Assembly: GCA_046483455.1 (NCBI GenBank)
Contig: JAWODE010000147.1
Location: forward strand, 1 to 32,280
Origin: Candidatus Hydrogenedentota bacterium
GTDB lineage: Bacteria > Hydrogenedentota > Hydrogenedentia > Hydrogenedentales > SLHB01
Length of the DNA stretch: 32,280 nt
Direction of reading: 5' to 3'
Shown here: one piece after another, positions 1 to 17,676 of the stretch
Position numbering within the stretch: the stretch's first letter is position 1
Layout: every line of letters starts with the position of its first letter
Position numbers and translations under genes: made by a program
The notes under the pieces: model-generated
Told to the model about the DNA's origin: nothing
The model's database searches: none
The model's input: only the letters and a program-made list of their open reading frames with translations

Positions 1-63
1 CCTTGCACGCCTACCGCGAAGCAAAAATACACCTGGCAAATAACACCCAACGCGCCGCCCCGG

Positions 64-1194
64 TTGCCGCACCCGCAACCGATGAACGGTAAGTGGCAGG
101 ACATGAAACTCAATATGGCGACGACATCTACGAACACCACCGGTGTTCCACTCACGGAAGCCGCGATTCTGGATTGGCTCCGCGAGGAGGACCCCGCGCG
201 CTTGGAAGAATTGTGGACTCGGGCTGATGCCGTGCGCAAAGAACACGTTGGGGACGAGGTGCATCTCAGAGGATTGCTTGAAATCTCGAACTACTGCATC
301 CGCCGCTGTGGTTATTGTGGTTTGCGCACCGACAACCGCCGTCTCGAACGCTATCGGATGACCGAGTCCGAAATTATGGCCTGCGCAGCCAAGGCGGTCG
401 GCTACGGGTACGGCACCGTGGTCATGCAATCGGGCGAAGATTACGGCATTGAAATGGACTGGCTCGCCAAGATCATCCGGCGCATCAAGACGGAAACCCC
501 GCTTGCCGTCACATTAAGCATGGGCGAAAGGCCCGCCGAAGATCTCGAAGCATGGCGTGAAGCAGGGGCCAATCGCTATCTCCTCCGTTTCGAAACCTCG
601 AACCGCAACCTGTACCGCATGATCCACCCCGACGCCCGGGGCAAGATATCCGACCGCATGGCAATCCTCGAACGGCTGCGCAAACTCGGTTACGAAACCG
701 GCAGCGGCGTAATGATAGGCCTTCCCGGCCAAGATTACTCGAGCCTCGCCCATGATATCCACACCTTTCGGACCCTCGATCTGGACATGGTCGGCGTCGG
801 ACCGTATATTGGACATCCGGAAACACCCTTGGGCAAAGGGGAATGGAGCGCACGCCTCCCGGAAGGCGCCCAAGTCCCGAATACGGAGCTAATGACGTAC
901 AAGGTGGTAGCATTAACGCGCATCGTTTGTCCGGAAGCGAATATTCCAAGCACAACAGCGCTGGCTACCCTGAACCGTACGGACGGCCGCGAATTGGGTT
1001 TGGCGCGGGGAGCAAATGTTATCATGCCAAACATCACCCCCCTCCATTACCGCAGCCGCTATGAAATCTATCCCGCCAAAGTCTGCGTCGAAGAAAGTTC
1101 CCCGGCATTTTACGAAGGGATACAGGACCGCATTCGGTCTGTAGGACGTAGACCGGGAGAAGGGCAGGGAGACCGTATCCGCCGCAATACATAA
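64..1194 (+). CDS. hydE: HydE-family radical SAM enzyme ([FeFe]-hydrogenase maturase HydE-like; BioB/PylB-related)
   Basis: CX3CX2C motif in SNYCIRRCGYCGLR. HydE-like blocks VVMQSGED, VTLSMGE, GANRYLLRFETSN and MIGLPGQ. The track start is TTG at 64; in-frame ATGs at 82, 103 and 115 are alternative starts. Confidence 0.75.
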   Translation: MPHPQPMNGKWQDMKLNMATTSTNTTGVPLTEAAILDWLREEDPARLEELWTRADAVRKEHVGDEVHLRGLLEISNYCIRRCGYCGLRTDNRRLERYRMTESEIMACAAKAVGYGYGTVVMQSGEDYGIEMDWLAKIIRRIKTETPLAVTLSMGERPAEDLEAWREAGANRYLLRFETSNRNLYRMIHPDARGKISDRMAILERLRKLGYETGSGVMIGLPGQDYSSLAHDIHTFRTLDLDMVGVGPYIGHPETPLGKGEWSARLPEGAQVPNTELMTYKVVALTRIVCPEANIPSTTALATLNRTDGRELGLARGANVIMPNITPLHYRSRYEIYPAKVCVEESSPAFYEGIQDRIRSVGRRPGEGQGDRIRRNT

Positions 1195-1213
1195 CGCACG
1201 TTGATTCTGCCGG

Positions 1214-1915
1214 ATGCAGGAGGAGTACGCACTACGTATGGGCCGGTCTAGGGCGAAATACGAACTCGGGCATTCACACCTCGAACGACTGGTTCATTAC
1301 TATCATTTTCTGGGCGAGCGCGCCGACATGGATAAAGAAGCTACGGTGTCCAGCCGGCAACTCGCCGAACTTCTCACCATGGATGATACGCAGGTGCGTA
1401 AGGACTTGGCCGCGATCGGAGTCCGGGGAGTTCCCCGCATCGGATACAACACCGTCGAAGTCATGGAAGCCATTCGCGAGGTTCTGGGATTCGACAAGAT
1501 TTACAAGGCGATCCTGGTTGGCGCCGGGCACCTTGGCGGAGCGCTTGCCGCATACCGGGGTTTTATGAAATATGGCCTGCGCATCGTAGGGGTATTCGAC
1601 AACGACCCCGCGCGGATTGGCACCACCATCGGCGGCCACTTCGTCTACGATACAAAAGAACTCGAGACCGTCATTATGCGGAATGAGGCGCGCCTCGCCA
1701 TTCTGGCCGTTCCCGCGGAAGCCTGCCAGGCCCTCGCCGATCGTCTCGTACGCGCGGGCATCTCGGGCATCTGGAACTTCGGACCAACGACCCTCACCGT
1801 ACCTCCCCACGTAGTCGTTCGCCACGAACACATTGTTGTAGGTCTCGCCGAGCTGGCCTATCACCTTCAACACAACCGCAGCGAAAACACAATCGCCGCT
1901 CAAGAAAAGGAATAG
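1214..1915 (+). CDS. rex: Redox-sensing transcriptional repressor Rex
   Basis: N-terminal winged-helix block (RLVHYYHFL...SSRQLAELL...QVRKDLA) followed by a Rossmann fold (ILVGAGHLGGALA..GFMKYGLRIVGVFDNDP). An alternative ATG at 1238 lies downstream of an AGGAGG. Confidence 0.85.
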   Translation: MQEEYALRMGRSRAKYELGHSHLERLVHYYHFLGERADMDKEATVSSRQLAELLTMDDTQVRKDLAAIGVRGVPRIGYNTVEVMEAIREVLGFDKIYKAILVGAGHLGGALAAYRGFMKYGLRIVGVFDNDPARIGTTIGGHFVYDTKELETVIMRNEARLAILAVPAEACQALADRLVRAGISGIWNFGPTTLTVPPHVVVRHEHIVVGLAELAYHLQHNRSENTIAAQEKE

Positions 1916-1939
1916 CGGCCATTGACTCTCGACTTGACC

Positions 1940-2278
1940 TCAATGATCACATAGATTGTCGCCGGTTTCGAGGGACCCGTCAAGATAGGCTGAAACGGTT
2001 TCCTCGGGCGATACAGGGGGCGCCCCGACAATAACTTGGATTCCCTGTTGAGAGAATAGTCCTTGCGCGCGTCGGCCCATGCCGCCCGCGATAATGACGT
2101 CCGCTCCTTGTTCATGCAACCATCGCGGAAGCACCCCCGGCTCGTGATCCGGCGCTTCAAGATACTGCGTGTCCAAAATCTTCTTACTCGACGGATCAAC
2201 CTCGACTATCGCAAATTGTTTACAGTGCCCAAAATGAGCCGCAAGCTTTCCATTAACCGTTGGGATGGCAAATTTCAT
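1940..2278 (-). CDS. NifX/NifB-C-terminal-like (dinitrogenase Fe-Mo cofactor domain, PF02579-type) small protein
   Basis: MKFAIPTVNGKLAAHFGHCKQFAIVEV...PGVLPRWL..GADVIIAGGMGRRAQGLF..GIQV is the typical architecture of this family. AAGGAA RBS before the ATG. Confidence 0.8.
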   Translation of the reverse strand: MKFAIPTVNGKLAAHFGHCKQFAIVEVDPSSKKILDTQYLEAPDHEPGVLPRWLHEQGADVIIAGGMGRRAQGLFSQQGIQVIVGAPPVSPEETVSAYLDGSLETGDNLCDH

Positions 2279-2495
2279 GTTCAGGTTCCTTTGTCATTTA
2301 GGGTATTCTTCTTAAAGACGTTCAGCGTCCTTCTTCAAACAAGGCACGGAAGTAGCAAATGAGACTTTCACGGAAGAGAGCGTCCCTCCTTTCAAGAGGC
2401 GTTATCCCTCAAGAAAGTAGCCAAATTCGCGGGGATTCGCCAATAAAAAGGTTACTCACTTGTGCACGGTTGCCGCCGCAACAAACAAAAACGCT

Positions 2496-2912
2496 TCAGT
2501 CTATTTGCACCAACTCAACGCTCTTTCCCGCGAGTTTAGCATGTTTTATCTCCCAAAACGCACTGAAGTTCTCTACGAAATACCCCTGTAACTCCGTAAT
2601 ATTCTCAATGCCCGACACAATGGGGCAGATGCGCGTCTGCCGGTTTATGTGCTCAAAATTGGGGCTCATTCGCTTCGCAACTAGGAAGTCTACATCAGGC
2701 CCCAGAAGCGCCACCACCGACTGCCTCTTTTTGCGTGAGCCGTGTACATTCCCTTCGTCGATTTCTTTAGATGGATTCGCGATTTCCCTTTCCAGACGTG
2801 CTTCACCCCCTTCGGATATCTTGTACACTTGAAACTTGTCTGAGTCGCCAAAATGGGTCGGACTTACTGCGACGCCGTCATTTGTTCCAATAGCATAAAT
2901 CAAATCAGACAT
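2496..2912 (-). CDS. NifX/NifB-like Fe-Mo cofactor-domain protein (divergent paralog)
   Basis: IGTNDGVAVSPTHFGDSDKFQVYKI... matches the HFG...F.iY core of the family. It starts 20 nt downstream of the Mrp gene on the same strand. Confidence 0.6.
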   Translation of the reverse strand: MSDLIYAIGTNDGVAVSPTHFGDSDKFQVYKISEGGEARLEREIANPSKEIDEGNVHGSRKKRQSVVALLGPDVDFLVAKRMSPNFEHINRQTRICPIVSGIENITELQGYFVENFSAFWEIKHAKLAGKSVELVQID

Positions 2913-2932
2913 GCCTTTCTCCCAACTGGATA

Positions 2933-3769
2933 CTAAGTCAATAGCGGTTGAATCACGGCAAAAAATGCTTTGGCCGTCTCGCTCTCCGCAAAAGATTTGA
3001 CGAAAGGCTTCCCACTGTCACCCGATGCGACAATCTCCGGGTCAAGTGGAATACGTCCCAGAAATGGCACCCCCATTTCCGAGGCAAGGTTTTCCGCACC
3101 GCCCGTCTTGAACAAGTCAATTTCTTTTCCACAATGCGGGCAAATCAACCCGCTCATGTTCTCGATAATGCCCGCAACAGGAAGGTTGAGATTGCCACAA
3201 AACGAAATGCTCCGGCGCACATCCGCCACGGCAACCTCTTGTGGTGTGCTCACCACAAGAGCGGAAGCCCCTTCGCCCGCCATTTGCGCAACGGACAACG
3301 GTTCATCACCGGTTCCCGGCGGGCAATCGATAACCAGGTAGTCTAAGGGACCCCAGGCAACATCCTTAAGAAACTGTTGAATAACCTTGTACTTCAAAGG
3401 ACCGCGCCAGATGACCGCATCCTTCGCGCTGTTCAGCAACAGTCCGATAGACACCACCGCCAGATTCTCCATCACTTGAATTGGCGCAATGGCCCCGGAG
3501 CTGTCCGGCCCCAGGCGTTTCCCTTCCAAAGCAAGGATTTTGGGAATGCTTGGCCCATGCAGGTCTACATCCAACAGCCCAACTCTTTTTCCCGCCAACG
3601 CCAAAGCCATAGCCAAATTGGCCGCCACCGTACTCTTTCCCACACCGCCCTTGCCGGAAAGCACGAGCAGTTTCTTCGTTATCTGTCCCATGCGCGTCAG
3701 CAGCTCTGTTTCTTCTTGTTGTCGCCGCGAAGCCGCGGCTGCAGGGGTATCTGAGTTCTCTTCCTTCAT
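2933..3769 (-). CDS. Mrp/NBP35/ApbC-family P-loop ATPase (Fe-S cluster carrier)
   Basis: Deviant Walker A LSGKGGVGKSTVAANLA, LVIDCPPGTGDE, the CPHCG cluster-binding CxxC and PFLGRIPLD. Confidence 0.9.
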   Translation of the reverse strand: MKEENSDTPAAAASRRQQEETELLTRMGQITKKLLVLSGKGGVGKSTVAANLAMALALAGKRVGLLDVDLHGPSIPKILALEGKRLGPDSSGAIAPIQVMENLAVVSIGLLLNSAKDAVIWRGPLKYKVIQQFLKDVAWGPLDYLVIDCPPGTGDEPLSVAQMAGEGASALVVSTPQEVAVADVRRSISFCGNLNLPVAGIIENMSGLICPHCGKEIDLFKTGGAENLASEMGVPFLGRIPLDPEIVASGDSGKPFVKSFAESETAKAFFAVIQPLLT

Positions 3770-3798
3770 GGTGAAACGCCTTCCTTTGAATATTCCCG

Positions 3799-4161
3799 TT
3801 ATAAGACAGAGGCGCGATGTTGTTTTGCCAATAATTTGAGACGCCGGACATGCCGCTCGAAAATCGTGAGGGCGGTCTCGAGGTAATGGAGCTGTGTCTT
3901 CAATCCGCTTATCTCGGCTTGTGGTTCAGACGCGGGAGACCTCACCGGCCAACCATTCGCTCCCGCAAATCCGTTGGCGGGATCGTCGGGATTCGCCGGG
4001 AGCTTCAGGGCACAGAACCCCCTCCCCCGCCACTCATAGGGCCGCGGCCACGCGGCCCCGCACCATCAAAGCCAGGCGTGACAAAATCCTCCGTCTATGT
4101 TGCCTATCCAGTCTTTCCATTGAACACAAATCTTGTCTTCATCGTTTTTTTCTTCTCGCAT
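3799..4161 (-). CDS. Candidate DUF5320-like coiled-coil protein interrupted by an in-frame TGA (possible selenoprotein, pseudogene, or a shorter 48-aa ORF 3799-3945)
   Basis: Not in the ORF track. ATG 4161, TGA 4068-4066, TAA 3801-3799, all in one frame. The tail EISGLKTQLHYLETALTIFERHVRRL resembles the tail of the 7273-7677 protein. A GC hairpin at 4058-4039 starts 7 nt after the TGA. The ORF ends 29 nt before the Mrp start. Confidence 0.3.
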
Positions 4162-4211
4162 TTGTAAGGACTTCTCGAAAGAAATTATGAGGCGCCCCTG
4201 ATTCATCCCTC

Positions 4212-4862
4212 TCATGGGGAAAAACCAAACTCGGCGGCAAGTTTACCCGTCGCCTCGATTAACCGTGCGAGATAGTCGTCGCCGAGGTCAATCACATTTC
4301 CACCGCGCACAAAGAGCAAGTTGTTTGTGGCAACAATCACCTGATACTGCTCCGCCATCGTGAGCAAACCCTGGTGAATGTACTCGCAATTTTCCAGATC
4401 TTGGCCCGTCTCCGGACTATCTAGGAGCATTACAGTCTCACTACGGTGCGATTGGCGCCTCAAACTGTCGAGAACGCCCTTGCCATGAGACAGAAACATA
4501 GACCGAACACCTTGAATCATCTCTTCGCGCGTGGAAAACCCCTCTCCCACGAGCGGATTAAGGGTTTCCGTGGTGATGTATTTTGTTTCGTCGTCGCTGG
4601 TTTTCGAGATTTCACAAAAAGAACACGACGCAAGAGCTTTCAGTACCGTCGACTTCCCCGAGCCGTTTGGGCCAATCAATACATTGTACCCAGGCTCAAA
4701 ACGAAGGCGGGCATCGTCAGCTTCCAATTTGCGGATTCTCGATACGTGGTTTACACAGAATTTGACGCTTTGGATCATCTGAAACGGTTTTTGATGGTAT
4801 TCCCCGGACTTAAACAGGGCTCCTAGGGGACCTCTTTTCCAAAAGGAGGACGCAAGGGGCAT
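4212..4862 (-). CDS. Small soluble ABC-type/AAA P-loop ATPase of unknown role
   Basis: Walker A NVLIGPNGSGKST, signature-like LSHGKG, Walker B VMLLDSPETGQD. No transmembrane partner nearby. An alternative ATG at 4778 (MIQSVKF) is possible. Confidence 0.6.
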   Translation of the reverse strand: MPLASSFWKRGPLGALFKSGEYHQKPFQMIQSVKFCVNHVSRIRKLEADDARLRFEPGYNVLIGPNGSGKSTVLKALASCSFCEISKTSDDETKYITTETLNPLVGEGFSTREEMIQGVRSMFLSHGKGVLDSLRRQSHRSETVMLLDSPETGQDLENCEYIHQGLLTMAEQYQVIVATNNLLFVRGGNVIDLGDDYLARLIEATGKLAAEFGFSP

Positions 4863-4981
4863 GCCAAAACGGGAAAACCTTTGCGTTTGCCCTTTATCTG
4901 GCGGTTATACGCCCTTTTCGGAAAGAATCGCACGCGCAAATCGGCCCCCGGCACGATACAGCTCGCCCACCCAATCATGCG

Positions 4982-6358
4982 TTATGCAATATTGTTTCGC
5001 CGGCCGCGGCCGTCCGTGTCTGGCGCACTAATCCCGAGAGCCCGGATTTTGCGGTACAGCGTGCTTACATTAATTCCAAGATCTTGGGCAACTTGCTTGC
5101 GGTTTCCATTACGTCGGCGCAAGGCTTCCTCGATAAGAAAGCGTTCCATGGCCTCGAGGCTCATAGGACGGGCCTCCTCATGCTCAACGTGGGAGGCGGA
5201 TGCCCGCAATTCCGGCGGAAGGTGATTCAGCTCTATCAACCCGCCCCGGCACAGCACGAAGGCCTGCTCGATGATATTCTCGAGTTCTCGCACATTGCCG
5301 GGATAATCGTATTCCATAAGACGGGCCATAACGTTATCGGAAACGCCGGCAATACCCTTCCCCTGCAACTGGTTATATTTGGCGATGAGCCTGTTCACCA
5401 GCAGAGGGATGTCTTCGCGCCGCTGCTTCAGCTCGGGCAGCTTCAAATAAACAACCCGAATGCGGTAATACAAGTCATCACGAAATTTCCCTGCCCGAAC
5501 AAGCGCTTTAAGGTCCTGATTGGTGGCCGCAACGACGCGCACGTCCACAGGAGTACTTTTGACGCCCCCTAGAGGCTCGATGCGGCGTTCCTGCAGAACT
5601 CGCAACAAGCGTACCTGCATGGCGGGCGATATATCGCCGACTTCATCGAGAAAGATGGTGCCGCCATTGGCCAGCTCGAAACGCCCCGGTTTGTCGCGCT
5701 TTGCGTCCGTAAAAGCTCCGGCTTTATGACCGAACAGCTCGCTTTCCAGCAACGTGTCAGGCAAAGCAGCACAATTGACCGCCACAAAAGGCTTCTCTTT
5801 GCGGGGCGAAAGATTATGGATGGCGCGTGCAAATAATTCCTTGCCGGTCCCACTCGCTCCCTCGATAAGCACCGTGCTGCTACTGGCGGAAATTTGCGGC
5901 AAAATCTCGAAAAGCCGCAACATCACGGGACTGCGCCCAACGATGTCCTCGAACGTGTAGCGATTCTCCAATTTTTTCTGAAGCTGTTCAATCTGCCGCA
6001 GGTCCTGAAATGTTTCAACTCCCCCTATGATCGCCCCCGTTTCATTTTGAAGCAAAGCGGTAGAGATGCGTATTGGAATACGTTCTCCTTCGTAATTTAC
6101 GATGTGGGCCATCGCATTCACCACGGGTCTTCCTTCGGCCATGGTTCGCCTGAGGGCACAATTCGACTCACAGATACTGGCATGAAACACATCGCAACAC
6201 GGATTTCCGATAGCTTGCTCCCGCGATACTCCAGTAATATGCTCGGCCGCGCTGTTAAACGACGTAATCCGCCATTCTCGATCAACCGTAAACACACCTT
6301 CGTTGATCGAATCGAGAATGGTGCATTCGCGTTCTGTTGCCTGATTCGATATAGTCAT
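4982..6358 (-). CDS. Sigma-54-dependent transcriptional activator (PAS sensor + AAA+ + Fis-type HTH; no receiver domain)
   Basis: PAS block (ILDSINEGVFTVDREWRITSFNSAAEHITG), Walker A GASGTGKE, ESELFGH, the GAFTDA sigma-54 contact motif, and the C-terminal HTH NVSTLYRKIRALGI. The ATG at 6358 (MTISNQ) is preferred over the track TTG at 6397. Confidence 0.9.
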   Translation of the reverse strand: MTISNQATERECTILDSINEGVFTVDREWRITSFNSAAEHITGVSREQAIGNPCCDVFHASICESNCALRRTMAEGRPVVNAMAHIVNYEGERIPIRISTALLQNETGAIIGGVETFQDLRQIEQLQKKLENRYTFEDIVGRSPVMLRLFEILPQISASSSTVLIEGASGTGKELFARAIHNLSPRKEKPFVAVNCAALPDTLLESELFGHKAGAFTDAKRDKPGRFELANGGTIFLDEVGDISPAMQVRLLRVLQERRIEPLGGVKSTPVDVRVVAATNQDLKALVRAGKFRDDLYYRIRVVYLKLPELKQRREDIPLLVNRLIAKYNQLQGKGIAGVSDNVMARLMEYDYPGNVRELENIIEQAFVLCRGGLIELNHLPPELRASASHVEHEEARPMSLEAMERFLIEEALRRRNGNRKQVAQDLGINVSTLYRKIRALGISAPDTDGRGRRNNIA

Positions 6359-6513
6359 ATCCGCCTCTTCAAAGAAAGCTAGCACATATTCACGCAAAAT
6401 GCAATCTTATCAGCAGGCAAAAACATTAATTTTGCACGATTATTGAACGAATTCGCTCCCCCTTGCCCCTCAGAACTCGTTGGAATTACAGAAGTTAGTA
6501 CAAAATGCCGGCT

Positions 6514-6529
6514 TGGCACAGTTTTTGAT
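6514..6529 (+). promoter_or_regulatory. Sigma-54-like -24/-12 promoter element (TGGCACAGTTTTTGAT)
   Basis: TGGCAC with correct spacing to TTGA (consensus TTGC, so one mismatch at the -12 C). It sits in the divergent intergenic region next to a sigma-54 activator gene. Caveat: the predicted start site would leave only about 5 nt of leader before ATG 6544. Confidence 0.4.
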
Positions 6530-6543
6530 ACATTCTTAATGGA

Positions 6544-6927
6544 ATGAAAGTCGCAATACCAGAGTGGCAAGGCCGGGTTTCTCCCGTTTTCGACGTGGCG
6601 GCTCAACTACTGATAGCCCAAGTTGAAAACGGCCAAGTGAACGAACAGTACACAATTGGGTTAAACACGAGAGACCTTCACGCGCGAGCGCGGCAAGTGG
6701 CCGAGTTGGGGATCGACGTGCTGATATGCGGCGCAATATCGTGGCCCCTCGAACTTGCGCTTGTCAACGCCGGCGTGGAGGTTGTCCCCCAGACCTGCGG
6801 GGATGTCCAGCACGTCCTCGCAACGTTTCTGGCGGGCCAGCTCGGCCAGAATGCGTTTCTCATGCCCGGCTGCTGCGGTCGGCGCCGCCGTTTTCGCGCA
6901 CAGCGCCGTCGTGGTCGGCCGGTATGA
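6544..6927 (+). CDS. NifX/NifB-like Fe-Mo cofactor-domain protein with Cys/Arg-rich tail
   Basis: MKVAIPEWQGRVSPVFDVA...GIDVLICGAIS...GVEVV follows the family layout. The C-terminal tail is PGCCGRRRRFRAQRRRGR. Confidence 0.65.
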   Translation: MKVAIPEWQGRVSPVFDVAAQLLIAQVENGQVNEQYTIGLNTRDLHARARQVAELGIDVLICGAISWPLELALVNAGVEVVPQTCGDVQHVLATFLAGQLGQNAFLMPGCCGRRRRFRAQRRRGRPV

Positions 6928-6992
6928 GAGGTGCCCGGTATCTTGACATGCATAGTGCTAACTAACACAAGCCCATGAAAAAGGAGGTTGTT

Positions 6993-7214
6993 ATGCCCCG
7001 AGGAGATGGAACAGGACCGCCGAGAGGCGGGCGTGGGCAAGGCCGGGGGCAGGGACGCGGACAAGGGCGCGGTAGAATGGGCGGCCCTTTTGCGGCCGGA
7101 CCCGGCGGACAGTGTGTGTGTCCGAAATGTGGCCAGACAGCGCCACACAGCGTTAGCCAGCCCTGCAACCAACAAACTTGTCCTAACTGCGGCACACCAA
7201 TGACACGTGCTTAG
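6993..7214 (+). CDS. DUF5320-type N-terminus (MPRGDGTGP) + RGQG repeats + C-terminal zinc ribbon
   Basis: AGGAGG lies 5 nt before ATG 6993. The protein starts MPRGDGTGPPRGGRGQGRGQGRGQGRGR, followed by CPKCG...CPNCG. Confidence 0.7.
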   Translation: MPRGDGTGPPRGGRGQGRGQGRGQGRGRMGGPFAAGPGGQCVCPKCGQTAPHSVSQPCNQQTCPNCGTPMTRA

Positions 7215-7272
7215 ATACAAGTGAAAACATGCAAACAAGCGGCTTAAACCGCTAGAAGAAAGGAGATTGATT

Positions 7273-7677
7273 ATGCCAGGTGGAGATGGAACAGGCCCGG
7301 CTGGAATGGGCCCAATGACGGGCCGCGCAGCAGGATATTGCGCGGGATATGCAGCGCCAGGCTTTGCAAACCCGGTTCCCGGACGTGGCTTCTGGGGTTG
7401 GGGCCGCGGTGGCGGCTGGGGCCGTGGTGGCGGCGGCTGGGGCCGGCGTAACTGGTTCTACGCAACCGGCCTGACGGGCTGGCAACGCGCCGGCTATGGG
7501 TACCCGATGGGAGGCACCACACCGTACGCAGCCCCCTACGCAACGCCATACGCCCCCCCTGTTTCTCAGGAGCAGGAAGTGGACATGCTCAAAGGCCAAG
7601 CCGAATACTTCGAGGACGCCCTGGCCGGGATAAAAAAGCGTCTCGAAGAACTCGAAAGCAAAGCCAAAGAAACCTGA
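7273..7677 (+). CDS. DUF5320 family protein (Gly/Arg/Trp-rich centre, C-terminal coiled coil)
   Basis: AAAGGAG RBS. N-terminus MPGGDGTGPAGMGPMTGRAAGYCAGY, a GRGFWGWGRGGGWGRGGGGWGRRNW centre, and the tail QEQEVDMLKGQAEYFEDALAGIKKRLEELE. Confidence 0.8.
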   Translation: MPGGDGTGPAGMGPMTGRAAGYCAGYAAPGFANPVPGRGFWGWGRGGGWGRGGGGWGRRNWFYATGLTGWQRAGYGYPMGGTTPYAAPYATPYAPPVSQEQEVDMLKGQAEYFEDALAGIKKRLEELESKAKET

Positions 7678-7691
7678 TCCTCACCCGAAAC

Positions 7692-7723
7692 GGAGGGCCG
7701 AAGCGTTTTGCGCTCGGCCCTCC
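7692..7723 (+). promoter_or_regulatory. Very stable intra-operon stem-loop without a U-tract
   Basis: GGAGGGCCGA(A)GCG-UUUUG-CGC-UCGGCCCUCC gives 13 bp with one bulge. It starts 15 nt after the DUF5320 stop codon and is followed by CTACACGGG, with no T run. Confidence 0.6.
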
Positions 7724-7748
7724 CTACACGGGAAGAAAGGATGGTACG

Positions 7749-7949
7749 ATGCCCCTCTTCAAGTATCGGTGTACCAAATGCGGAAATATCATTGAGGTCC
7801 TCGAAAAAGTTAACGCCCAAGGTCGGCACACGTGCGAGAAGTGCGGCAACCGTCGCATGGAGAAAATGATGTCGGCATTCAGCGTTGGTGCCGGGAATCA
7901 AGGCGGTACAGGAAGTTCCTGTCCGACGGGGACCTGTCCGCTATCGTAA
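7749..7949 (+). CDS. FmdB-family zinc-ribbon protein (CxxC-CxxC-SSSS type)
   Basis: MPLFKYRCTKCGNIIEV....HTCEKCG... and the tail GSSCPTGTCP. GAAAGGA RBS. Confidence 0.8.
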   Translation: MPLFKYRCTKCGNIIEVLEKVNAQGRHTCEKCGNRRMEKMMSAFSVGAGNQGGTGSSCPTGTCPLS

Positions 7950-8128
7950 CACGACGTTCCGCGGGTATTAACTCGGGCCTGCACTTTATAAAGCCTGCAG
8001 TAGCTCACATGTCTGAAATCAGGGGTAGGTAGTAGCGGTTTTTTGTGCAAGCTCTAAACGCATCTCAGAATTTTCAAAGAAAAACATTGGGAAAGCACAA
8101 ACCTTACTTACTTGAGGAGAGATCGTTT

Positions 8129-8563
8129 ATGGGACGAGGAATGGGCCGCGGTCGCGGTATGGGCCGGGGCAGAAAACGCCGAATGGGCATGGGAAGCGGA
8201 CGGTCGAGGTGGACAGCTCCACCGTCTGGCTTCGTGGGCGCAAATCGACCACCCCTGCAACCGGATAATAGTTTCTCAACACACGCTCCAAACAAAACGA
8301 GCGCTTTTCCAGCTGAAAAGAGTGAACAAACGGAAGGAACAAGAGAAGAAATGGGAGAAGTTAAGGAAGGTACGCAACGGTCGGGCTGGGTTGCAAATTT
8401 GAATGCGCGTCATTGTATTCTATGTGGCATATGCCAGACCGTTTGCCCCGTCGAGGCAATATCCATAGGTAGAAGTGTAATGATTAATCAGGACATTTGC
8501 ACCGGGTGCGGCGAGTGCGTGGCAGCGTGTCCTCAAGACGCGTTATCGTTAAAGAAACGCTAG
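8129..8563 (+). CDS. RG-rich N-terminus fused to a 2x[4Fe-4S] ferredoxin domain
   Basis: GAGGAG RBS before ATG 8129. N-terminus MGRGMGRGRGMGRGRKRRMGMGSGR, a low-complexity linker, then CILCGICQTVCP and CTGCGECVAACP. Confidence 0.7.
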   Translation: MGRGMGRGRGMGRGRKRRMGMGSGRSRWTAPPSGFVGANRPPLQPDNSFSTHAPNKTSAFPAEKSEQTEGTREEMGEVKEGTQRSGWVANLNARHCILCGICQTVCPVEAISIGRSVMINQDICTGCGECVAACPQDALSLKKR

Positions 8564-8615
8564 TCCCCGGCGACTTCAGCCTGGGGATAAATCCAACCAG
8601 AAAGGGCCGGTATCT

Positions 8616-9968
8616 ATGAAACATGTCGATATCCTTGTTATCGGGGGCAGTGCGGCAGGTCTAACCGCCGCGATTACCGCGAGACGACACTATCCGGAGA
8701 AACAGACGTTTATCCTCCGCAAAGAGGAGCAAGTGCTGATTCCTTGTGGCATTCCATATATCTTCGGCACGGTGGGAAGCCCCGAGAAAAACTTAATACC
8801 TGACAAGGTACTGGCCCAAAACCAGGTAGACCTTCTTGTTGATGAAGCTACCGAGATCGACCGTGACAAAAACTGCGTTATTACCGCAAACGGGGAATCC
8901 GTCGGCTACGACCGCTTGGTTCTGGCCACGGGATCATTGCCGGCCATGCCGCCTATACCCGGCTTCGAACTCGAGAATGTGTTTCCAATATATAAAGATG
9001 TCGCCCATCTCCACCAAATGCAAGAAGCACTACAAGGCATATCTGATCTCGTCATCGTCGGCGGCGGGTTCATCGGCGTCGAATTCGCGGATGAATGCAA
9101 GAAAAGCCTCGGAGCAAACGTATCTATCGTTGAAATGCTTCCCCACTGCTTGATGCTGGCGTACGACGAAGAATTTTGTGTCCACGCCGAAAATCTGCTC
9201 CGCGAAAGAGATATTGAGCCTGTTACAAACACACGGGTTAAACGGATTGTTGGCACGGATTCCGTGGAAGGCGTCGAACTCGAAGACGGCAACACCATCC
9301 CGGCCCAAGCGGTGATTTTGGGCATCGGCGCCGCGGCAAACGTCACGCTTGCTGAACAGGCCGGACTCCAAATCGGCCCCACGGGCGGCATCGGTGTAGA
9401 CCGCACTATGCGGACATCTGACGAACATATCTACGCCTGCGGGGATTGCGCGGAAAAAGTCTCTTTCTTTGGCGGCCGGCCATCGGGTCTCAAGCTGGCT
9501 TCCATAGCAACCGCCGAGGCGCGCATCGCCGCCGCCAACCTCTTCGGCACACGGCGAGAAAGCATTGGTACGGTAGGCGTCTGGTCAACGGCCATCGGCG
9601 AAACGGCCTTCGCCACCGCCGGCCTTACCGAGAGGCTTGCCAAACGGCACGGCTACTACCACGTGGTCGGTACCGCGGAAGCCCCCAATCGCCATCCGGG
9701 CGGAATGCCGGGCGCGCATAATATGAAAGTAAAACTCGTATTCGAGAAACGCACGGGGATAATCCTTGGCGGCCAGGTCATGGGCGATAGTGCCGCGGGC
9801 GAGGTCATTAACGCTATCAGTGCGTGCATTCAGCAACGTATGACCGCGGAAGATGTTGCGATGTTTCAAACGGGAACACATCCCGCACTCACGGCCTCTC
9901 CGGTTTCCTACCAATTCGTAAATGCCGCCGAGGCTGCAATTGCGGCCCTGCGCGAAACCAGCAGCTAA
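8616..9968 (+). CDS. FAD-dependent pyridine nucleotide-disulfide oxidoreductase (NADH oxidase/CoA-disulfide reductase-like)
   Basis: FAD fingerprint DILVIGGSAAGLTAA, putative redox Cys in LIPCGIPY, second dinucleotide fold LVIVGGGFIGVEFA, and ACGDCA. Confidence 0.8.
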   Translation: MKHVDILVIGGSAAGLTAAITARRHYPEKQTFILRKEEQVLIPCGIPYIFGTVGSPEKNLIPDKVLAQNQVDLLVDEATEIDRDKNCVITANGESVGYDRLVLATGSLPAMPPIPGFELENVFPIYKDVAHLHQMQEALQGISDLVIVGGGFIGVEFADECKKSLGANVSIVEMLPHCLMLAYDEEFCVHAENLLRERDIEPVTNTRVKRIVGTDSVEGVELEDGNTIPAQAVILGIGAAANVTLAEQAGLQIGPTGGIGVDRTMRTSDEHIYACGDCAEKVSFFGGRPSGLKLASIATAEARIAAANLFGTRRESIGTVGVWSTAIGETAFATAGLTERLAKRHGYYHVVGTAEAPNRHPGGMPGAHNMKVKLVFEKRTGIILGGQVMGDSAAGEVINAISACIQQRMTAEDVAMFQTGTHPALTASPVSYQFVNAAEAAIAALRETSS

Positions 9969-9983
9969 GACGGGGAGAAGACA

Positions 9984-10394
9984 ATGTGCACGATATTGAT
10001 CATAGATGACGACGCCGATTTTCGCGATGCCTGCAAGTTGATCCTTGAATCGGCCGGGTTCGCCGTTGCCGAAGCTGACGACCCCGAAGAAGGCTTAAAG
10101 AAGGTCGAGGCCGAAAATCCCGACCTTGTGATTCTCGATGTGCTCATGCCGCGCGAATATGAGGGTTTCGAGGTGGCCCGCCGCATTCGCGAAGAACTCG
10201 GGATGCACGACGTGCCGATCCTTATGCTGAGCGCGGTCCATGATGTGAAAAAAACACCCTATCGCTTTGAACCCAGTCAACCCTATTTGCCCGTTCAAGC
10301 ATTTCTGGATAAGCCTGTTGCGCCGGAAACGCTGCTGCGGAAAGTCCAGGATATGCTGGGCACACACCGGCACGAACCGGAAGAGCCGCTGTAA
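9984..10394 (+). CDS. Stand-alone CheY-like response regulator receiver
   Basis: ILIIDDD...PDLVILDVLMP (phospho-acceptor Asp context)...ILMLSA...K. No output domain. Confidence 0.85.
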   Translation: MCTILIIDDDADFRDACKLILESAGFAVAEADDPEEGLKKVEAENPDLVILDVLMPREYEGFEVARRIREELGMHDVPILMLSAVHDVKKTPYRFEPSQPYLPVQAFLDKPVAPETLLRKVQDMLGTHRHEPEEPL

Positions 10395-10435
10395 AGACCA
10401 CCCAAAAACAGTTTTGGCGTCACAAAGACAATGTC

Positions 10436-11128
10436 ATGATTTCACATGGACAAACCGACACCGGCCGTGCATTCGACTTCGGCAAACGCGCCCAGGATTA
10501 CGACCGGTGGTACACAACCCCCGAGGGGCAGGCGCACGACCGCGTACAGAAAGCGGACGTGCGCCACTTTCTCGGCCCGGCAACTTCGGGAATGCGCCTG
10601 CTCGACATAGGCTGCGGGACGGGGCATTGGAGCGGTTTCTTCGCCTCACTCGGGTATAACGTCGCAGGGGTAGATGTCGCCCCGGAAATGATTCAGGTGG
10701 CGCACAATCGCACTATGCCCGGCGTCGCTACTCAGGTAGCCGATGCACGTTTCTTGCCGTTTCAAGATGCATCGTTCGATGTGGCAGCCACCATGACGGT
10801 TCTCGAATTTCTTCCCGAACCCGCCACGGCGCTTCGAGAAATGGCGCGTTGTATAAAAATGCGGGGCCGTATGCTGATAGGGTGCCTGAACCGCTTTGCT
10901 TCTATCAATCAACAGCGTTTGGCCGAAGGCCGCGAACCCTATATATCAGGGCAACTCTTTTCGCCGGACGAACTTGCCGCATTGCTTCGGCCTTTCGGAA
11001 AGGTCCGAATGATAGCCTCAGAACCCGGAAACGGAAGAAATGAGACCGCTTCCAAGGCATTTAGGAAGGCCGGACCGTCTCGAACAGAATTGACTGGCCC
11101 CCTTATTATCGCGGAGGTGCAACGGTGA
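10436..11128 (+). CDS. Class I SAM-dependent methyltransferase
   Basis: Motif I LLDIGCGTGHWSGFFA and post-I VAGVDVAPEMI; Methyltransf_11-like. Confidence 0.8.
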   Translation: MISHGQTDTGRAFDFGKRAQDYDRWYTTPEGQAHDRVQKADVRHFLGPATSGMRLLDIGCGTGHWSGFFASLGYNVAGVDVAPEMIQVAHNRTMPGVATQVADARFLPFQDASFDVAATMTVLEFLPEPATALREMARCIKMRGRMLIGCLNRFASINQQRLAEGREPYISGQLFSPDELAALLRPFGKVRMIASEPGNGRNETASKAFRKAGPSRTELTGPLIIAEVQR

Positions 11129-11379
11129 TCATCCAGGCAGAGATCAGTCTTTATCCCTTGCGCGCGCAAAAAATCAGTCCGGTACTCGACGACTTTCTGA
11201 GCCATTTGCGAGCCCATGAACTCACTATTGAACCCGGCGCCATGAGCACCCATATTACAGGCGAGACCGATGAAGTGTTTTCGGCGCTGAATACAGCATT
11301 TGCGGCGGTGCTCAACGAGAATCAGGCGGTGCTGATCGTCAAAGTTTCGAACGCATGTCCGACGGAGCATCAACAATGA
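11125..11379 (+). CDS. MTH1187/YkoF-like (thiamine/HMP-binding fold) small protein
   Basis: IQAEISLYPL...HELTIEPGAMSTHITGE..EVF resembles the ferredoxin-like DUF77/YkoF repeat. The GTG start overlaps the upstream stop (GTGA). Confidence 0.5.
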   Translation: MIIQAEISLYPLRAQKISPVLDDFLSHLRAHELTIEPGAMSTHITGETDEVFSALNTAFAAVLNENQAVLIVKVSNACPTEHQQ

Positions 11380-12914
11380 TGAAATCTACACAGAAAGCCA
11401 CCTACTCGCCAACAAACACATTGACCCCGGAAGCCCTTGCATGGCGAGACAAGCGTCTCGCTCGAATCCGGCGTTGGGAAACCACCAACAAATACAAACC
11501 GTTTATTGACGAAGGGACCATCCAGGCAACGCTGGACCACAATAAGAGCCCTTCCAAAGAAGCGGTCTACGATATCATCGCCAAAGCACGCGCAAACGCG
11601 ACTACAGGAGCCATGCTTAGTCCCGACGAAGTGGCCTCCCTCACGGCAGTCACGGACCCGGAAATCTGGGAGGCCATTTTTGAGACGGCCTATTGGATAA
11701 AGAAAACGGTTTATGGCAACCGCATTGTGCTTTTCGCGCCGCTATATGTATCAAGCCCCTGTGTGAACAACTGCCTGTACTGCGGGTTCCGGGACAGCAA
11801 CCGCGCCGTCACCAAACGCACCCTCAGTTCTGAGGAACTGGATGAAGAACTCCGTGCCCTCGTTAATGCAGGCCACAAACGCCTTATCATGGTCTACGGC
11901 GAAAGCCCGGAAAACGATTATACGTACATTTGCGATACGATCGCCGCCGCGTACCGGTTCAAAGATGGGCCGGGAGAAATCCGCCGTGCCAATATCAACG
12001 CCGCTCCATTGTTCGTGAACGAATACCGCGACGTACGCTCTGTCGGCATTGGGACCTACCAGGTATTTCAGGAAACTTATCACCGGCCAACCTATGCATA
12101 CGTTCACCCGAAAGGGACACTGAAAGCAGAATACGATTGGCGCGCTTTTGCACTGCACCGCGCCCAGGAAGCCGAAATTGACGACGTGGCCATCGGGGTC
12201 CTTTTCGGTTTGTACGACTGGCGCTTTGAACTCCTGGGGCTTCTGGAACATGCCATGTCGCTCGAGCGGGAATTTGGAGTCGGCCCGCACACAATCTCGT
12301 ATCCCCGCCTGGAACCGGCGGAAGGCACGCCCTTCGCCAGCCATTCTCCGTGGCTCGTCAGCGACGAAGATTTCAAAAAGATCGTAGCCATTATCCGTTT
12401 GATGTGTCCATACACAGGGTCCATATTAACCGCACGCGAAGGCCCTGATCTTCGGCGAGAAGTAATGCGGAAAGGCGGCGTATCGCAAATGGACGCCGGG
12501 TCGCGAATCGCCGTCGGAGGATATGCTCAAATGAACCGGGACCATCAACCCGGCCGCCAACAATTCTTTTTGGCGGACAGACGCAGTCTGGATGCTTTCA
12601 TTCTGGACCTTTGTCGCGAAGGTTACCTCCCCTCTTTCTGCACGGCGGGCTACCGGGAAGGGCGAACCGGCGCCAATTTCATGCCCCTCGCCAAACATGC
12701 AACCGTCAACAACTTCTGCATCGCCAACGGCATACTCACGTTTCAAGAATATCTCACGGATTATGCTTCCGAAGCAGTCAAGCAATTGGGTCGCGAAACC
12801 ATCATTCCGGAATTTCTGGCATGGTTGGACGAACACGCCCCCGCGCTTGCACCGAAGGTCCGGACAAACCTCGAGCGTATGGAGCGCGAAGAAATCCGCG
12901 ATTTGCATTTTTGA
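11376..12914 (+). CDS. HydG/ThiH-family radical SAM aromatic-amino-acid lyase-like enzyme, with a variant C-terminal motif CX2GX22C
   Basis: APLYVSSPCVNNCLYCGF radical SAM motif. HydG-like C-terminal domain PSFCTAGYREGRTGANFM...NNFCIANGILTFQEYL. The ATG at 11376 overlaps the upstream stop (ATGA); the track ATG at 11355 is an alternative. Confidence 0.8.
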   Translation: MMKSTQKATYSPTNTLTPEALAWRDKRLARIRRWETTNKYKPFIDEGTIQATLDHNKSPSKEAVYDIIAKARANATTGAMLSPDEVASLTAVTDPEIWEAIFETAYWIKKTVYGNRIVLFAPLYVSSPCVNNCLYCGFRDSNRAVTKRTLSSEELDEELRALVNAGHKRLIMVYGESPENDYTYICDTIAAAYRFKDGPGEIRRANINAAPLFVNEYRDVRSVGIGTYQVFQETYHRPTYAYVHPKGTLKAEYDWRAFALHRAQEAEIDDVAIGVLFGLYDWRFELLGLLEHAMSLEREFGVGPHTISYPRLEPAEGTPFASHSPWLVSDEDFKKIVAIIRLMCPYTGSILTAREGPDLRREVMRKGGVSQMDAGSRIAVGGYAQMNRDHQPGRQQFFLADRRSLDAFILDLCREGYLPSFCTAGYREGRTGANFMPLAKHATVNNFCIANGILTFQEYLTDYASEAVKQLGRETIIPEFLAWLDEHAPALAPKVRTNLERMEREEIRDLHF

Positions 12915-12916
12915 CC

Positions 12917-14395: not shown

Positions 14396-14412
14396 ATACC
14401 AAGGAGGCAATA

Positions 14413-17455: not shown

Positions 17456-17461
17456 AAAACT

Positions 17462-17626
17462 ATGGTCTATATAGACGAACAACGCTGTATCGGATGTGGC
17501 ACCTGTGTTTCAGTGTGCCCGTCAGGTTTCGAGTTGATAGAAGGAAAAGCCAAGGTAAAAGACGAGACGGCGGATTGCATACAAGACGCGGTGATAGCAT
17601 GCCCGCGAGGCGCTATCACGACATGA
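17462..17626 (+). CDS. Small single-cluster ferredoxin (54 aa)
   Basis: Below the ORF-track length cutoff. MVYIDEQRCIGCGTCVSVCPSGFELIEGKAKVKDETADCIQDAVIACPRGAITT contains CxxCxxCxxxCP and a distal CP. It starts 6 nt after the upstream stop. Confidence 0.8.
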   Translation: MVYIDEQRCIGCGTCVSVCPSGFELIEGKAKVKDETADCIQDAVIACPRGAITT

Positions 17627-17676
17627 GTTCGAGTCTCATGCTATCCGATTCGCTTGCGAAATAAGGAGGATAAAAA

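Follow-up and report, generated by a model that had tools for sequence, protein, structure and literature searches.

We analysed a stretch of 32,280 nucleotides (nt) from a Candidatus Hydrogenedentota bacterium (assembly GCA_046483455.1, contig JAWODE010000147.1, positions 1 to 32,280 of the forward strand), referred to below as the window. Its subject here is a two-armed gene cluster at 1940-9968, probably extending to 12914, in which the gene of a PAS-type sigma-54 activator lies between genes for NifX-fold proteins, an Mrp/NBP35-type ATPase, proteins of the family DUF5320 and their partners. The identification of this locus as a variant of the orp-type ("orange protein", ORP) gene cluster, a kind already described in Desulfovibrio vulgaris (DVU2103-DVU2109), is well supported. 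An earlier reading, made from the sequence alone, had called the gene association undescribed; this was refuted, the orp operons of D. vulgaris Hildenborough (DvH) having a comparable arrangement and NCBIfam containing a model named MrpORP. Related loci from other genomes are numbered with the prefix L, L002/L003 being the closest relative.

Genes of the two arms

The genes of the cluster are the following (lengths in amino acids, aa).

1940-2278, minus: NifX-112, a 112-aa NifX-fold protein, the free-standing equivalent of the C-terminal Di-Nase domain of MrpORP (PF02579, 83 bits)
2496-2912, minus: NifX-138, a divergent, marginal 138-aa NifX-like protein (PF02579, 25.2 bits, cutoff 26.3, E 2e-5)
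2933-3769, minus: Mrp/NBP35 Fe-S (iron-sulfur) carrier ATPase, the P-loop half of MrpORP (PF10609, 322 bits)
3799-4079, minus: decayed DUF5320 (type 2) gene, with ACG for the ATG start and a 1-nt deletion in a G-run
4212-4778, minus: small ABC-like P-loop ATPase, 188 aa, first gene of the arm downstream of the activator gene (weak AAA_23, SMC_N and ABC_tran matches)
4982-6358, minus: OrpR-type sigma-54 activator with PAS, AAA+ (with GAFTDA) and Fis-type helix-turn-helix (HTH) domains (Pfam)
6544-6927, plus: NifX-127, a basic 127-aa NifX-fold protein with a C-terminal PGCC and poly-Arg tail (PF02579, 31.2 bits)
6975-7214, plus: RG/zinc-ribbon protein, 79 aa, with Arg/Gly (RG) repeats and a Cys4 ribbon (probable start 6993, MPRGDGTGP...)
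7267-7677, plus: DUF5320 protein, 136 aa (PF17253, 78.3 bits, threshold 27)
7749-7949, plus: FmdB-type Cys4 zinc-ribbon protein, 66 aa (PF09723, 41.6 bits)
8129-8563, plus: RG-ferredoxin, with an Arg/Gly-rich N-terminus MGRGMGRGRGMGRGRKRR (MGRGMGRG...) and two [4Fe-4S] motifs (Fer4 families)
8616-9968, plus: FAD flavoprotein of the single-Cys CoA-disulfide/CoA-persulfide reductase/NADH oxidase group, with PCGIPY (Pfam Pyr_redox)
9984-10394, plus: stand-alone receiver-domain protein (PF00072, 79 bits), 15 nt after the flavoprotein gene
10436-12914, plus: methyltransferase, YkoF/thiamine-binding-like protein and HydG-like radical S-adenosylmethionine (SAM) enzyme, at spacings of 41, -4 and -25 nt

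Profile scans confirmed nearly all the families named in the sequence-only reading. Those of the minus arm (ATPase, interrupted DUF5320-like gene, Mrp/NBP35 and NifX-like proteins, the 138-aa one marginally) were recovered with Pfam and NCBIfam; the plus-arm NifX-like protein, FmdB ribbon, di-cluster ferredoxin and FAD disulfide-reductase-like enzyme were recovered with Pfam, as was the activator between the arms, through its PAS, Sigma54_activat and HTH_8 domains. Two plus-arm proteins had been assigned to DUF5320. The assignment holds for the 136-aa protein (78 bits on PF17253) and was rejected for the 79-aa one (9 bits, E = 4), which has only the MPRGDGTGP/RG-repeat N-terminus in common with the family. 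The small ABC-type ATPase gene is real, with weak ABC similarity; the protein has 188 rather than the proposed 216 residues, since the first 28 codons of the open reading frame (ORF) overlap the sigma-54 promoter described below and the L002 orthologue is also 188 aa long. The proposed mirroring of the two arms is no more than approximate, as the arms differ in NifX subfamilies and in partners.

In the minus arm, the Mrp protein carries the deviant Walker A motif GKGGVGKST and a CPHC (CxxC) motif, and its closest relatives are from Planctomycetaceae (70%) and Phycisphaerae (67%). It matches the NCBIfam MrpORP model, NF041136, with 382 bits over positions 2-248 of 365, and NifX-112 matches the same model with 133 bits over positions 265-365, both below the cutoff of 450 bits. 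These matches led us to the orp literature. The motifs of NifX-112 (HFGHC, P-D-H-E-PG and a terminal CDH) agree with the description of the MrpORP Di-Nase domain (PMC6345978), and its structural matches are 1T3V/1O13 (E about 1e-13) and 2YX6 (E 3e-11). Mrp and NifX-112 correspond to the two halves of MrpORP, and both are joined in a single fused ORF in 9/51 related genomes. For NifX-138 there was no sequence match in the PDB, the single-sequence structure model was unusable (pLDDT 43), and a homologue was found in only one related locus (L044, 31%).

The small ATPase has a Walker A motif, an FSSHG signature-like motif and a Walker B motif, with weak PDB matches to ABC and Rad50 P-loops. Its family is rare (41 representatives at E <= 1e-10 among 1.84 billion proteins). 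Cys8, His11, Cys52 and Cys55 are invariant in 18 aligned members of about 185 aa, which suggests a metal or Fe-S cluster site; the single-sequence structure model was unusable here too (pLDDT 34). In this lineage, the gene fills the slot that is taken by an ORP-like NifX gene in other loci.

The plus arm opens with NifX-127 (pI 9.29, 4 Cys, 12% Gly in the last 40 residues, a tail of about 20 residues), whose orthologues in L002, L004 and L006 are 82%, 65% and 51% identical. The RG/zinc-ribbon protein has orthologues in the same three loci (85%, 71% and 60%) and homologues upstream of ORP in L007 and L008; in Desulfobacterota loci its position is Orp7-like. In the 136-aa DUF5320 protein, an N-terminus MPGGDGTGPxGMGPMTGRAAGYCAGY is followed by a middle part rich in Trp, Gly and Arg and, at the C-terminus, by an amphipathic helix. 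The FmdB ribbon is absent from L002. The ORF of the RG-ferredoxin opens at 8045, and its true start is probably 8129, where a start codon follows a Shine-Dalgarno sequence; the L002 orthologue is 143 aa long, and the protein is homologous to the C-terminal part of a NifX-DUF5320-Fer4 fusion in L006. The flavoprotein reaches 241 bits on the NCBIfam CoADR model, below the cutoff. Its best PDB matches are 6PFZ (A. fulgidus NoxA-3), 8A56 (CoA-persulfide reductase) and 4FX9/3KD9, its PCGIPY aligns with the same motif of the P. horikoshii CoA-disulfide reductase (CoADR), and it recurs in orp-type loci of Omnitrophota and others. The pairing of this flavoprotein with a receiver protein is repeated in L110, L112, L118 and L129. 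The genes at 10436-12914 probably continue the plus-arm transcription unit.

The interrupted DUF5320 gene of the minus arm is a case of real decay. An ACG stands 7 nt after GGAGGA where homologues carry ATG, and a 1-nt deletion in the G-run at 4015-4031 causes a frameshift and a premature TGA at about 4007. After repair in silico, the product scores 24 bits on PF17253 (E 9e-5, positions 2-89 of 99), below the 27-bit threshold. In L092, L101, L108 and L146, the slot between NifX and Mrp is occupied by an intact type-2 homologue (MPxFDGTGPRGxGPMTGRGRGFCxLK...). We rejected sequencing error as the cause, because both lesions are also present in L001, an independent and slightly divergent assembly from another sample (99.35% identical over 5.7 kb). 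Programmed frameshifting is unlikely, the start codon being lost as well.

Between the window and L001 there are 38 differences over the 5.7 kb, and none within the 3.2 kb at 1029-4215, from the end of HydE through Rex, NifX-112, NifX-138 and Mrp to the broken DUF5320 gene, where about 45 would be expected at the rate of the flanks. This block suggests a recent sweep or recombination between strains. Most of it (2279-4221) is absent from L002.

The activator, its promoters and candidate enhancers

The regulatory elements around the activator gene are predicted as follows.

4866-4851, minus: predicted sigma-54 promoter P2 of the minus arm (TGGCATgccccTTGCG, TGGCAT-N5-TTGCG; motif and conservation)
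4973-4993, no strand assigned: candidate UAS2, a 21-bp imperfect palindrome that overlaps the activator stop codon, ~110 nt upstream of P2
6389-6440, no strand assigned: candidate enhancer UAS1, of paired elements, CGCAAAATGC at 6393-6402 and ATCGTGCAAAAT at 6429-6440 (minus-strand reading)
6514-6529, plus: predicted sigma-54 promoter P1 of the plus arm (TGGCACagtttTTGAT, TGGCAC-N5-TTGAT; motif and conservation)

In DvH, redox potential is sensed by OrpR (DVU2106), a PAS sigma-54 activator, by means of a [4Fe-4S] cluster that is bound only if C52, C61 and C65 are present, with D/E54 close by (PMC8359166). The activator of the window has the Pfam domains PF13426/PF00989, PF00158, PF25601 and PF02954. 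Its PAS domain reads CCDVFHASICESNC, with C54, D56, C63 and C67 plus an extra C55 (numbered from the ATG at 6358), so that the spacing of 0, 2, 9 and 13 (C-x-D-x6-C-x3-C) equals that of OrpR C52/D-E54/C61/C65. The same spacing was found in all seven aligned activators, including that of Desulfovibrio sp. X2, a locus reached via the sequence of D. gigas ORP (PDB 2WFB); the window activator is 55% identical to this one, which is encoded beside an orange-protein gene. In addition, GAFTDA stands at ORF residue 227 and in all orthologues aligned. The same deviation from GAFTGA is recorded for DVU2106 in the sigma-54 regulome (PMC4641369).

OrpR-like activators of 76-91% identity form more than 120 protein clusters, the named ones coming from Hydrogenedentes and several Planctomycetota families. 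Such conservation across phyla is unusually high for a transcription factor. It suggests either that the cluster has spread horizontally or that constraint is very strong. The orthologue in L005 has no orp genes within 10 kb.

Where one sigma-54-like promoter had been read from the sequence, two were found. P2 is conserved in L002 (TGGCATgtcccTTGCG) and L004 (TGGCACatagcTTGCT), and L001 retains its GG and TTGC. P1, whose -12 element is non-canonical, ends 14 nt before the ATG of NifX-127. The pattern TGGCAC-N5-TTG(A/C)(A/T) lies upstream of the NifX-127 orthologues of L002, L004 and 13/15 further loci, at 12-14 nt from the start codon in every locus where the start was located, which implies a nearly leaderless transcript lacking a Shine-Dalgarno sequence. 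Each arm is thus predicted to be driven by its own conserved sigma-54 promoter.

For the candidate enhancers, OrpR of DvH binds the box GGGCGYRTTTTGCGCCC upstream of each orp operon (PMC8359166). The element CGCAAAATGC in UAS1 is an exact match to the central 10 nt of this box (CGCAAAAYRC), a core that shuffled versions of the window contain 0.26 times on average, and ATCGTGCAAAAT recurs unchanged in L002 and L004. In many related loci, paired YGCA-N3-5-TGCR elements can be seen upstream of the plus-arm promoter. The UAS2 palindrome occupies the same position in L002 and is perfect in L004 (AATCGTGCACAATGCATGATT). A search with the 17-mer at up to 4 mismatches gave matches only inside genes or in the spacer between the DUF5320 and FmdB genes. 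That spacer holds a second exact core (GCGTTTTGCG, 7703-7712), around which the 17-mer at 7699-7715 has 4 mismatches; no sigma-54 promoter was found downstream of it, and FmdB is absent there in L002.

An Rfam scan of positions 1-18000 of the window found no riboswitch or other RNA family. The terminator scan gave fewer matches than shuffled sequence, and the operon ends are not defined by it.

Comparison with the Desulfovibrio orp system and with related loci

The orp system has been under study since 2011 (Fievet 2011/2014/2021, Pardoux 2019). In DvH, two sigma-54-dependent operons, orp5-orp4-orp3 and orp7-orp8-orp9, flank orpR, are the whole OrpR regulon and are turned off, not on, as the redox potential rises (PMC8359166); a dependence on integration host factor (IHF) has been described as well (PMC3897727). 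Orp9 is MrpORP, in which an Mrp/NBP35 domain is fused to a NifX-type "Di-Nase" domain, and it binds Fe-S clusters and passes them to Orp3/Orp4 (PMC6345978). Orp8 is the orange protein and Orp5 another Di-Nase protein. The physical Orp complex, the redox-dependent expression and the morphology phenotype have been reported for D. vulgaris only (PMC8359166, PMC6345978).

The locus in the window shares with this system a PAS sigma-54 activator that has the same Cys triad and GAFTDA and is encoded between two sigma-54-driven arms, one (here candidate) enhancer per arm, several NifX-fold Di-Nase proteins with an MrpORP-type Mrp/NBP35 carrier, a small RG-rich protein heading an arm, confinement to anaerobes, and the lack of nitrogenase. 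Gene families, OrpR signatures, conserved promoter and candidate enhancer elements, synteny and gene fusions were observed directly in the window and its relatives. The Desulfovibrio literature is the source for OrpR as a redox sensor, for the dependence on sigma-54, for MrpORP as a protein that binds and transfers Fe-S clusters and for a physical complex of Orp proteins, and the biochemical role we propose is carried over from those experiments. We consider it probable that the cluster as a whole is of the orp type, that it is gated by redox potential through its OrpR, and that its products build, keep and pass on clusters of the Fe-S or another metal-sulfide type. The sequence-only reading, which had proposed a dedicated metallocluster-handling system under a redox-sensing PAS activator, is consistent with this and closely matches the experiments on the homologous system. 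With the locus being an orp variant, the claim to a new system falls away.

Several points weigh against this interpretation. The window lacks a clear orthologue of the orange protein Orp8: among its proteins NifX-112 comes closest to D. gigas ORP (2WFB), with E = 0.004 and 20.7 bits, and neither NifX-127 nor NifX-138 matches. No Orp3/Orp4-type MinD-like ATPase with 2x[4Fe-4S] (CbiA plus Fer4) was found in the Pfam scans of the candidate ORFs of the window. Orp3/Orp4 are the shown targets of MrpORP, and the window is thus without the core of the DvH complex; these ATPases are also absent from L002. The two MrpORP halves are on separate genes with the extra NifX-like gene for NifX-138 between them, and L002, with an activator 91% identical, has no Mrp at all, which makes Mrp dispensable in this lineage. 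P1 has no GC at -12 and leaves a leader of only about 4 nt. The enhancer matches the DvH box in its core only: no site in either spacer matches the full 17-nt box at up to 4 mismatches, and the 17-mer at 6393 has 6 (counted by hand). Even in Desulfovibrio, the Orp proteins' physiological role is called "still unclear", with a link to cell division proposed (PMC8359166).

Further differences from DvH concern layout and content. One arm of the window lies downstream of the activator gene, whereas in DvH both diverge from it. The window adds DUF5320 (one intact gene and one decayed), the FmdB ribbon, the RG-ferredoxin, the CoADR-like flavoprotein, the receiver protein and the small ABC-like ATPase. 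Its host appears to be Planctomycetota/Hydrogenedentota-like, not one of the Desulfobacterota.

The Desulfovibrio ORP complex was at first proposed to position the septum or cell division. In favour of such a role, the DvH orpR mutant is morphologically defective, Orp3/Orp4 are MinD-like with amphipathic helices, and MrpORP is polar (PMC6345978, PMC8359166). The MinD-like Orp3/Orp4, the basis of that idea, are absent from the window, and the original authors themselves call the role unclear. Planctomycetota-like organisms divide unlike Desulfovibrio, which also counts against it. We regard a cell-division role for this locus as highly improbable; the comparison points away from it and towards iron-sulfide handling or storage.

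Among the related loci, 33 contain DUF5320 and have at least 6 kb of sequence each. A NifX-fold gene is present in 33/33 of them, an Orp3/4-type gene in 27, NifX-127 in 25, an OrpR-like activator in 18, Mrp in 17, the RG/zinc-ribbon protein in 16, FmdB in 10 (mostly after DUF5320), the methyltransferase in 9, the thiamine-binding-like protein in 7, the flavoprotein in 6 and a NifH-like gene in none. The co-occurrence of DUF5320 with NifX-like and Mrp genes, which the earlier reading had put forward as a check, is accordingly complete for NifX and found in 17/33 loci for Mrp. In these neighbourhoods DUF5320 is a near-obligate partner of NifX-fold proteins, a relationship that is new in this comparison. 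For Mrp, we compared 51 loci in which the protein is at least 48% identical to that of the window with 29 in which it is more distant; NifX is adjacent or fused in 26/51 vs 2/29 (Fisher p = 6e-5).

L002/L003 have the same layout as the window, with L002 lacking the block 2279-4221 (broken DUF5320 gene, Mrp and NifX-138) and FmdB. Insertion in the window and deletion in L002 are equally possible, since the more distant L011, L092 and L146 carry Mrp in the same arm. L011 (Planctomycetaceae) follows the full DvH-like plan, Orp3/4-type ATPases included (Orp3/4-type x2 <- DUF5320 <- NifX-127 <- activator -> NifX -> Mrp -> NifX-112). Orp3/4-type ATPases are also present in L004, L006, L007 and L008, and ORP-like genes in the sister loci L004 and L006. 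L110 and L112 have nearly the same plus-arm order as the window, with the methyltransferase, thiamine-binding-like and HydG genes in the same order and HydG at the end; L055 and L022 (Omnitrophota) bring together ferredoxin, flavoprotein, DUF5320, RG ribbon, NifX and Mrp.

In L006 (Anammoximicrobium-like), a 349-aa protein encoded at 14290-15339 fuses an ORP-like NifX domain (84 bits with Pfam), GRGMG repeats of about 70 residues, the C-terminal helix of DUF5320 (33 bits) and a ferredoxin with 2x[4Fe-4S] (55 bits), a gene fusion by which three plus-arm families are linked. The DUF5320 homologues P0206 and P0212 have tandem N-terminal MPxxDGTGP units, the first being of type 2 (MPGFDGTGP...GFC..KL), to which the broken gene of the window belongs; the two DUF5320 subtypes can therefore be fused.

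The orp system thus extends beyond Desulfobacterota to Planctomycetota, Hydrogenedentota, Verrucomicrobiota, Omnitrophota, Spirochaetota and several archaeal groups. Its make-up is modular, in that the activator persists together with the trio of NifX-127, RG ribbon and DUF5320, and losses can affect the orange protein, Orp3/4 and even Mrp.

The PF02579 domain is common to NifX, NafY and the C-terminus of NifB, and the NifX-fold proteins might on this ground be expected to handle the FeMo-cofactor of nitrogenase or its precursors, as NifX/NafY-type proteins do. We rejected such a role, to which we give next to no probability, because no nif genes were found: the 32-kb window contains no nifHDK, nifEN or nifB radical SAM gene, as the sequence-only reading had stated, and no NifH-like ORF was detected in the window, in L002-L008 or in 160 loci from two scans (~170 related loci). 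The NifX-fold proteins of the window belong, moreover, to ORP, MrpORP and TM1816-like groups.

Proposed cluster transfer, possible iron-sulfide storage and the flanking genes

On the orp-type interpretation, the PAS domain of the activator would bind a redox-sensitive [4Fe-4S] cluster, ligated by C54, C63 and C67 with D56 or the extra C55. At low redox potential the activator would be active, bind at 6389-6440 and 4973-4993 and open the sigma-54 promoters P1 (6514-6529, plus) and P2 (4866-4851, minus). P2 would serve the small ATPase, the dead DUF5320 gene, Mrp, NifX-138 and NifX-112 (as the split-off Di-Nase domain), and P1 would serve NifX-127, the RG/zinc-ribbon protein, DUF5320, FmdB, the RG-ferredoxin, the flavoprotein and the receiver protein, probably also the methyltransferase, the YkoF-like protein and the HydG-like enzyme. 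Made only under reducing conditions, the module would assemble, hold and hand over Fe-S (metal-sulfide) clusters. Mrp would build a bridging [4Fe-4S] cluster on its CxxC motif and pass it to partners, the NifX-fold proteins would hold labile clusters non-covalently, the polycationic Arg/Gly/Trp segments may bind anionic iron-sulfide species, and the flavoprotein and ferredoxin could supply sulfide and electrons. For DUF5320, the RG proteins, the small ATPase and the flavoprotein, the roles are inferred.

A second reading, the main rival, overlaps with this one and could be its plus-arm half. IssA of Pyrococcus furiosus (PF2025), an iron-sulfur storage protein to which the MrpORP paper refers, is a NifX-domain protein whose cationic, aromatic and Gly-rich 70-aa tail (15 Gly, 7 cationic residues, 14 aromatic residues, 11 Pro, pI 10.7 and the sole Cys of the protein) is proposed to wrap anionic thioferrate (PMC5524996). 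The 72-aa middle of the DUF5320 protein has 20 Gly, 6 cationic residues (all Arg), 15 aromatic residues, 9 Pro and a pI of 10.6, and the whole protein contains one near-invariant Cys. The resemblance, drawn from published composition figures, is one of composition and architecture; homology is not shown by it. According to Vaccaro et al. 2017, IssA proteins have pI >= 9, fewer than 5 Cys and at least 20% Gly in the last 40 residues, and IssX proteins have pI >= 8, fewer than 10 Cys and at least 10% Gly there. NifX-127 falls within the numerical limits of IssX and has the globular domain IPR003731/PF02579; with 12% Gly it lies below the 20% of IssA.

As in IssA/IssX, a NifX-fold domain is associated in the window with a cationic, Gly- and aromatic-rich, low-Cys segment, and both systems are anaerobe-specific with an Fe/S theme. 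The Pyrococcus sulfur response includes a CoADR-type enzyme (NSR), a further likeness to the flavoprotein of the window. Unlike in IssA, the Trp/Gly/Arg-rich segment is on a separate protein, DUF5320, and is fused to NifX in L006 only; NifX-127 has a short poly-Arg tail that fits IssX rather than IssA, and regulation would be by an OrpR-type sigma-54 activator rather than by SurR. The stand-alone NifX-fold proteins of known structure from non-diazotrophs (T. maritima 1T3V and 1O13, P. horikoshii PH0822 2YX6 and D. gigas ORP 2WFB) are small and single-domain like NifX-112, with an unknown or a cluster-binding function. Their structures were entered as those of hypothetical proteins; a defined cluster, Mo-Cu-S, belongs to ORP alone, which is distant from the window proteins (E = 0.004).

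It is conceivable, if unlikely, that DUF5320, the RG/zinc-ribbon protein, the ferredoxin with its RG tail and the poly-Arg end of NifX-127 are trans-acting equivalents of the IssA tail and form, with the NifX-fold proteins, a redox-gated store or buffer of anionic iron sulfide of a thioferrate-like or cluster-like kind. NifX-127 would nucleate an anionic iron-sulfide polymer, and the polycationic DUF5320, RG/zinc-ribbon protein and RG tail of the ferredoxin would enclose and neutralise it. The composition of the DUF5320 middle and its near-invariant Cys, the IssX limits within which NifX-127 falls, the L006 fusion of NifX, RG-rich stretch, DUF5320 helix and ferredoxin, and the NifX neighbour at all 33 DUF5320 loci speak for this storage model, and sulfur genes recur nearby (DsrE, rhodanese-lactamase_B, the persulfide-reductase-like flavoprotein). 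However, the DUF5320/IssA likeness is compositional only, NifX-127 is below the 20% Gly of IssA and its tail is short (about 20 residues), binding of nucleic acids and formation of condensates are further activities of Arg/Gly-rich segments, and thioferrate particles are not known from Planctomycetota-like organisms. We hold storage to be a minority possibility. A literature search on DUF5320, a family with no assigned function, returned nothing beyond two incidental mentions. If the model were true, such an iron-sulfide store or buffer would be at work in many kinds of anaerobes, bacterial and archaeal, the ORP system would correspond in bacteria to the Fe-S storage of archaea, and a function could be assigned to DUF5320.

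The cluster might instead be a unit against sulfur or persulfide stress. In it the flavoprotein would act as a reductase of CoA-persulfide or polysulfide and the small Cys-rich proteins as a buffer for sulfide or metals, with no delivery of clusters. The nearest solved relatives of the flavoprotein include the CoA-persulfide reductase and CoADR, and DsrE, rhodanese, lactamase_B, a Cys/Met pyridoxal-phosphate (PLP) enzyme and Thi4 recur in or near the loci. Yet the flavoprotein is found in 6/33 DUF5320 loci vs 33/33 for NifX and is therefore accessory rather than core; in addition, the DvH OrpR system is off at rising redox potential (PMC8359166), and Fe-S binding has been demonstrated for Mrp and NifX-fold proteins of the homologous system (PMC6345978). 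We judge this explanation improbable.

Sulfur-handling genes were also seen beside orp-type clusters more generally. The window encodes a Cys/Met PLP enzyme, a metallo-beta-lactamase-fold protein and Thi4 at 13205-16112; DsrE is encoded in L004 (7230-7583) and L055 (5065-5439), and a lactamase_B-rhodanese fusion in Desulfovibrio sp. X2 (L007, 12106-13491).

Two hydrogenase-maturation families lie on either side of the cluster.

64-1194, strand opposite to the minus arm: HydE (TIGR03956, 304 bits, cutoff 255)
11355-12914, plus: HydG-like radical SAM protein (TIGR03955, 428 bits, cutoff 312)

Both are above their cutoffs, and the NifX-like, Mrp and DUF5320 proteins could in principle be accessories of H-cluster maturation that serve the flanking HydE/HydF/HydG, for example as donors of Fe-S clusters. 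HydF-HydE-Rex also flanks the cluster in L002/L003, the HydG-like gene ends the plus arm in L110/L112, and the Desulfovibrio Mrp DVU2330 belongs to a hydrogenase-biogenesis operon (PMC6345978). Against this, HydE occurs in 0/33 and HydG in 2/33 DUF5320 loci, with L004, L006 and L011 free of Hyd genes; HydE and Rex are on the opposite strand, outside both sigma-54 units; the DvH OrpR regulon comprises the two orp operons only (PMC8359166); and the HydG-like protein lacks a conserved Cys, as described below. A hydrogenase-accessory function is distinctly improbable, and cluster handling of the orp type remains our preferred explanation.

HydE and the redox repressor Rex (64-1915) abut the minus arm, and no HydA gene was found in the window. 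In L002/L003, HydF lies beside HydE (L002, 13986-17105). HydE was not detected in L110/L112, where the methyltransferase, thiamine-binding-like and HydG genes end the plus arm. The C-terminal motif of HydG is CX2CX22C. In the HydG-like protein of the window and of L002 (3680-5218) this region reads C-T-A-G-Y-R, with Gly in place of the middle Cys, and the protein may be an orp-associated paralogue rather than an H-cluster maturase. Its gene directly follows those of the methyltransferase and the YkoF/thiamine-binding-like protein, overlaps the latter and is co-oriented with the plus arm.

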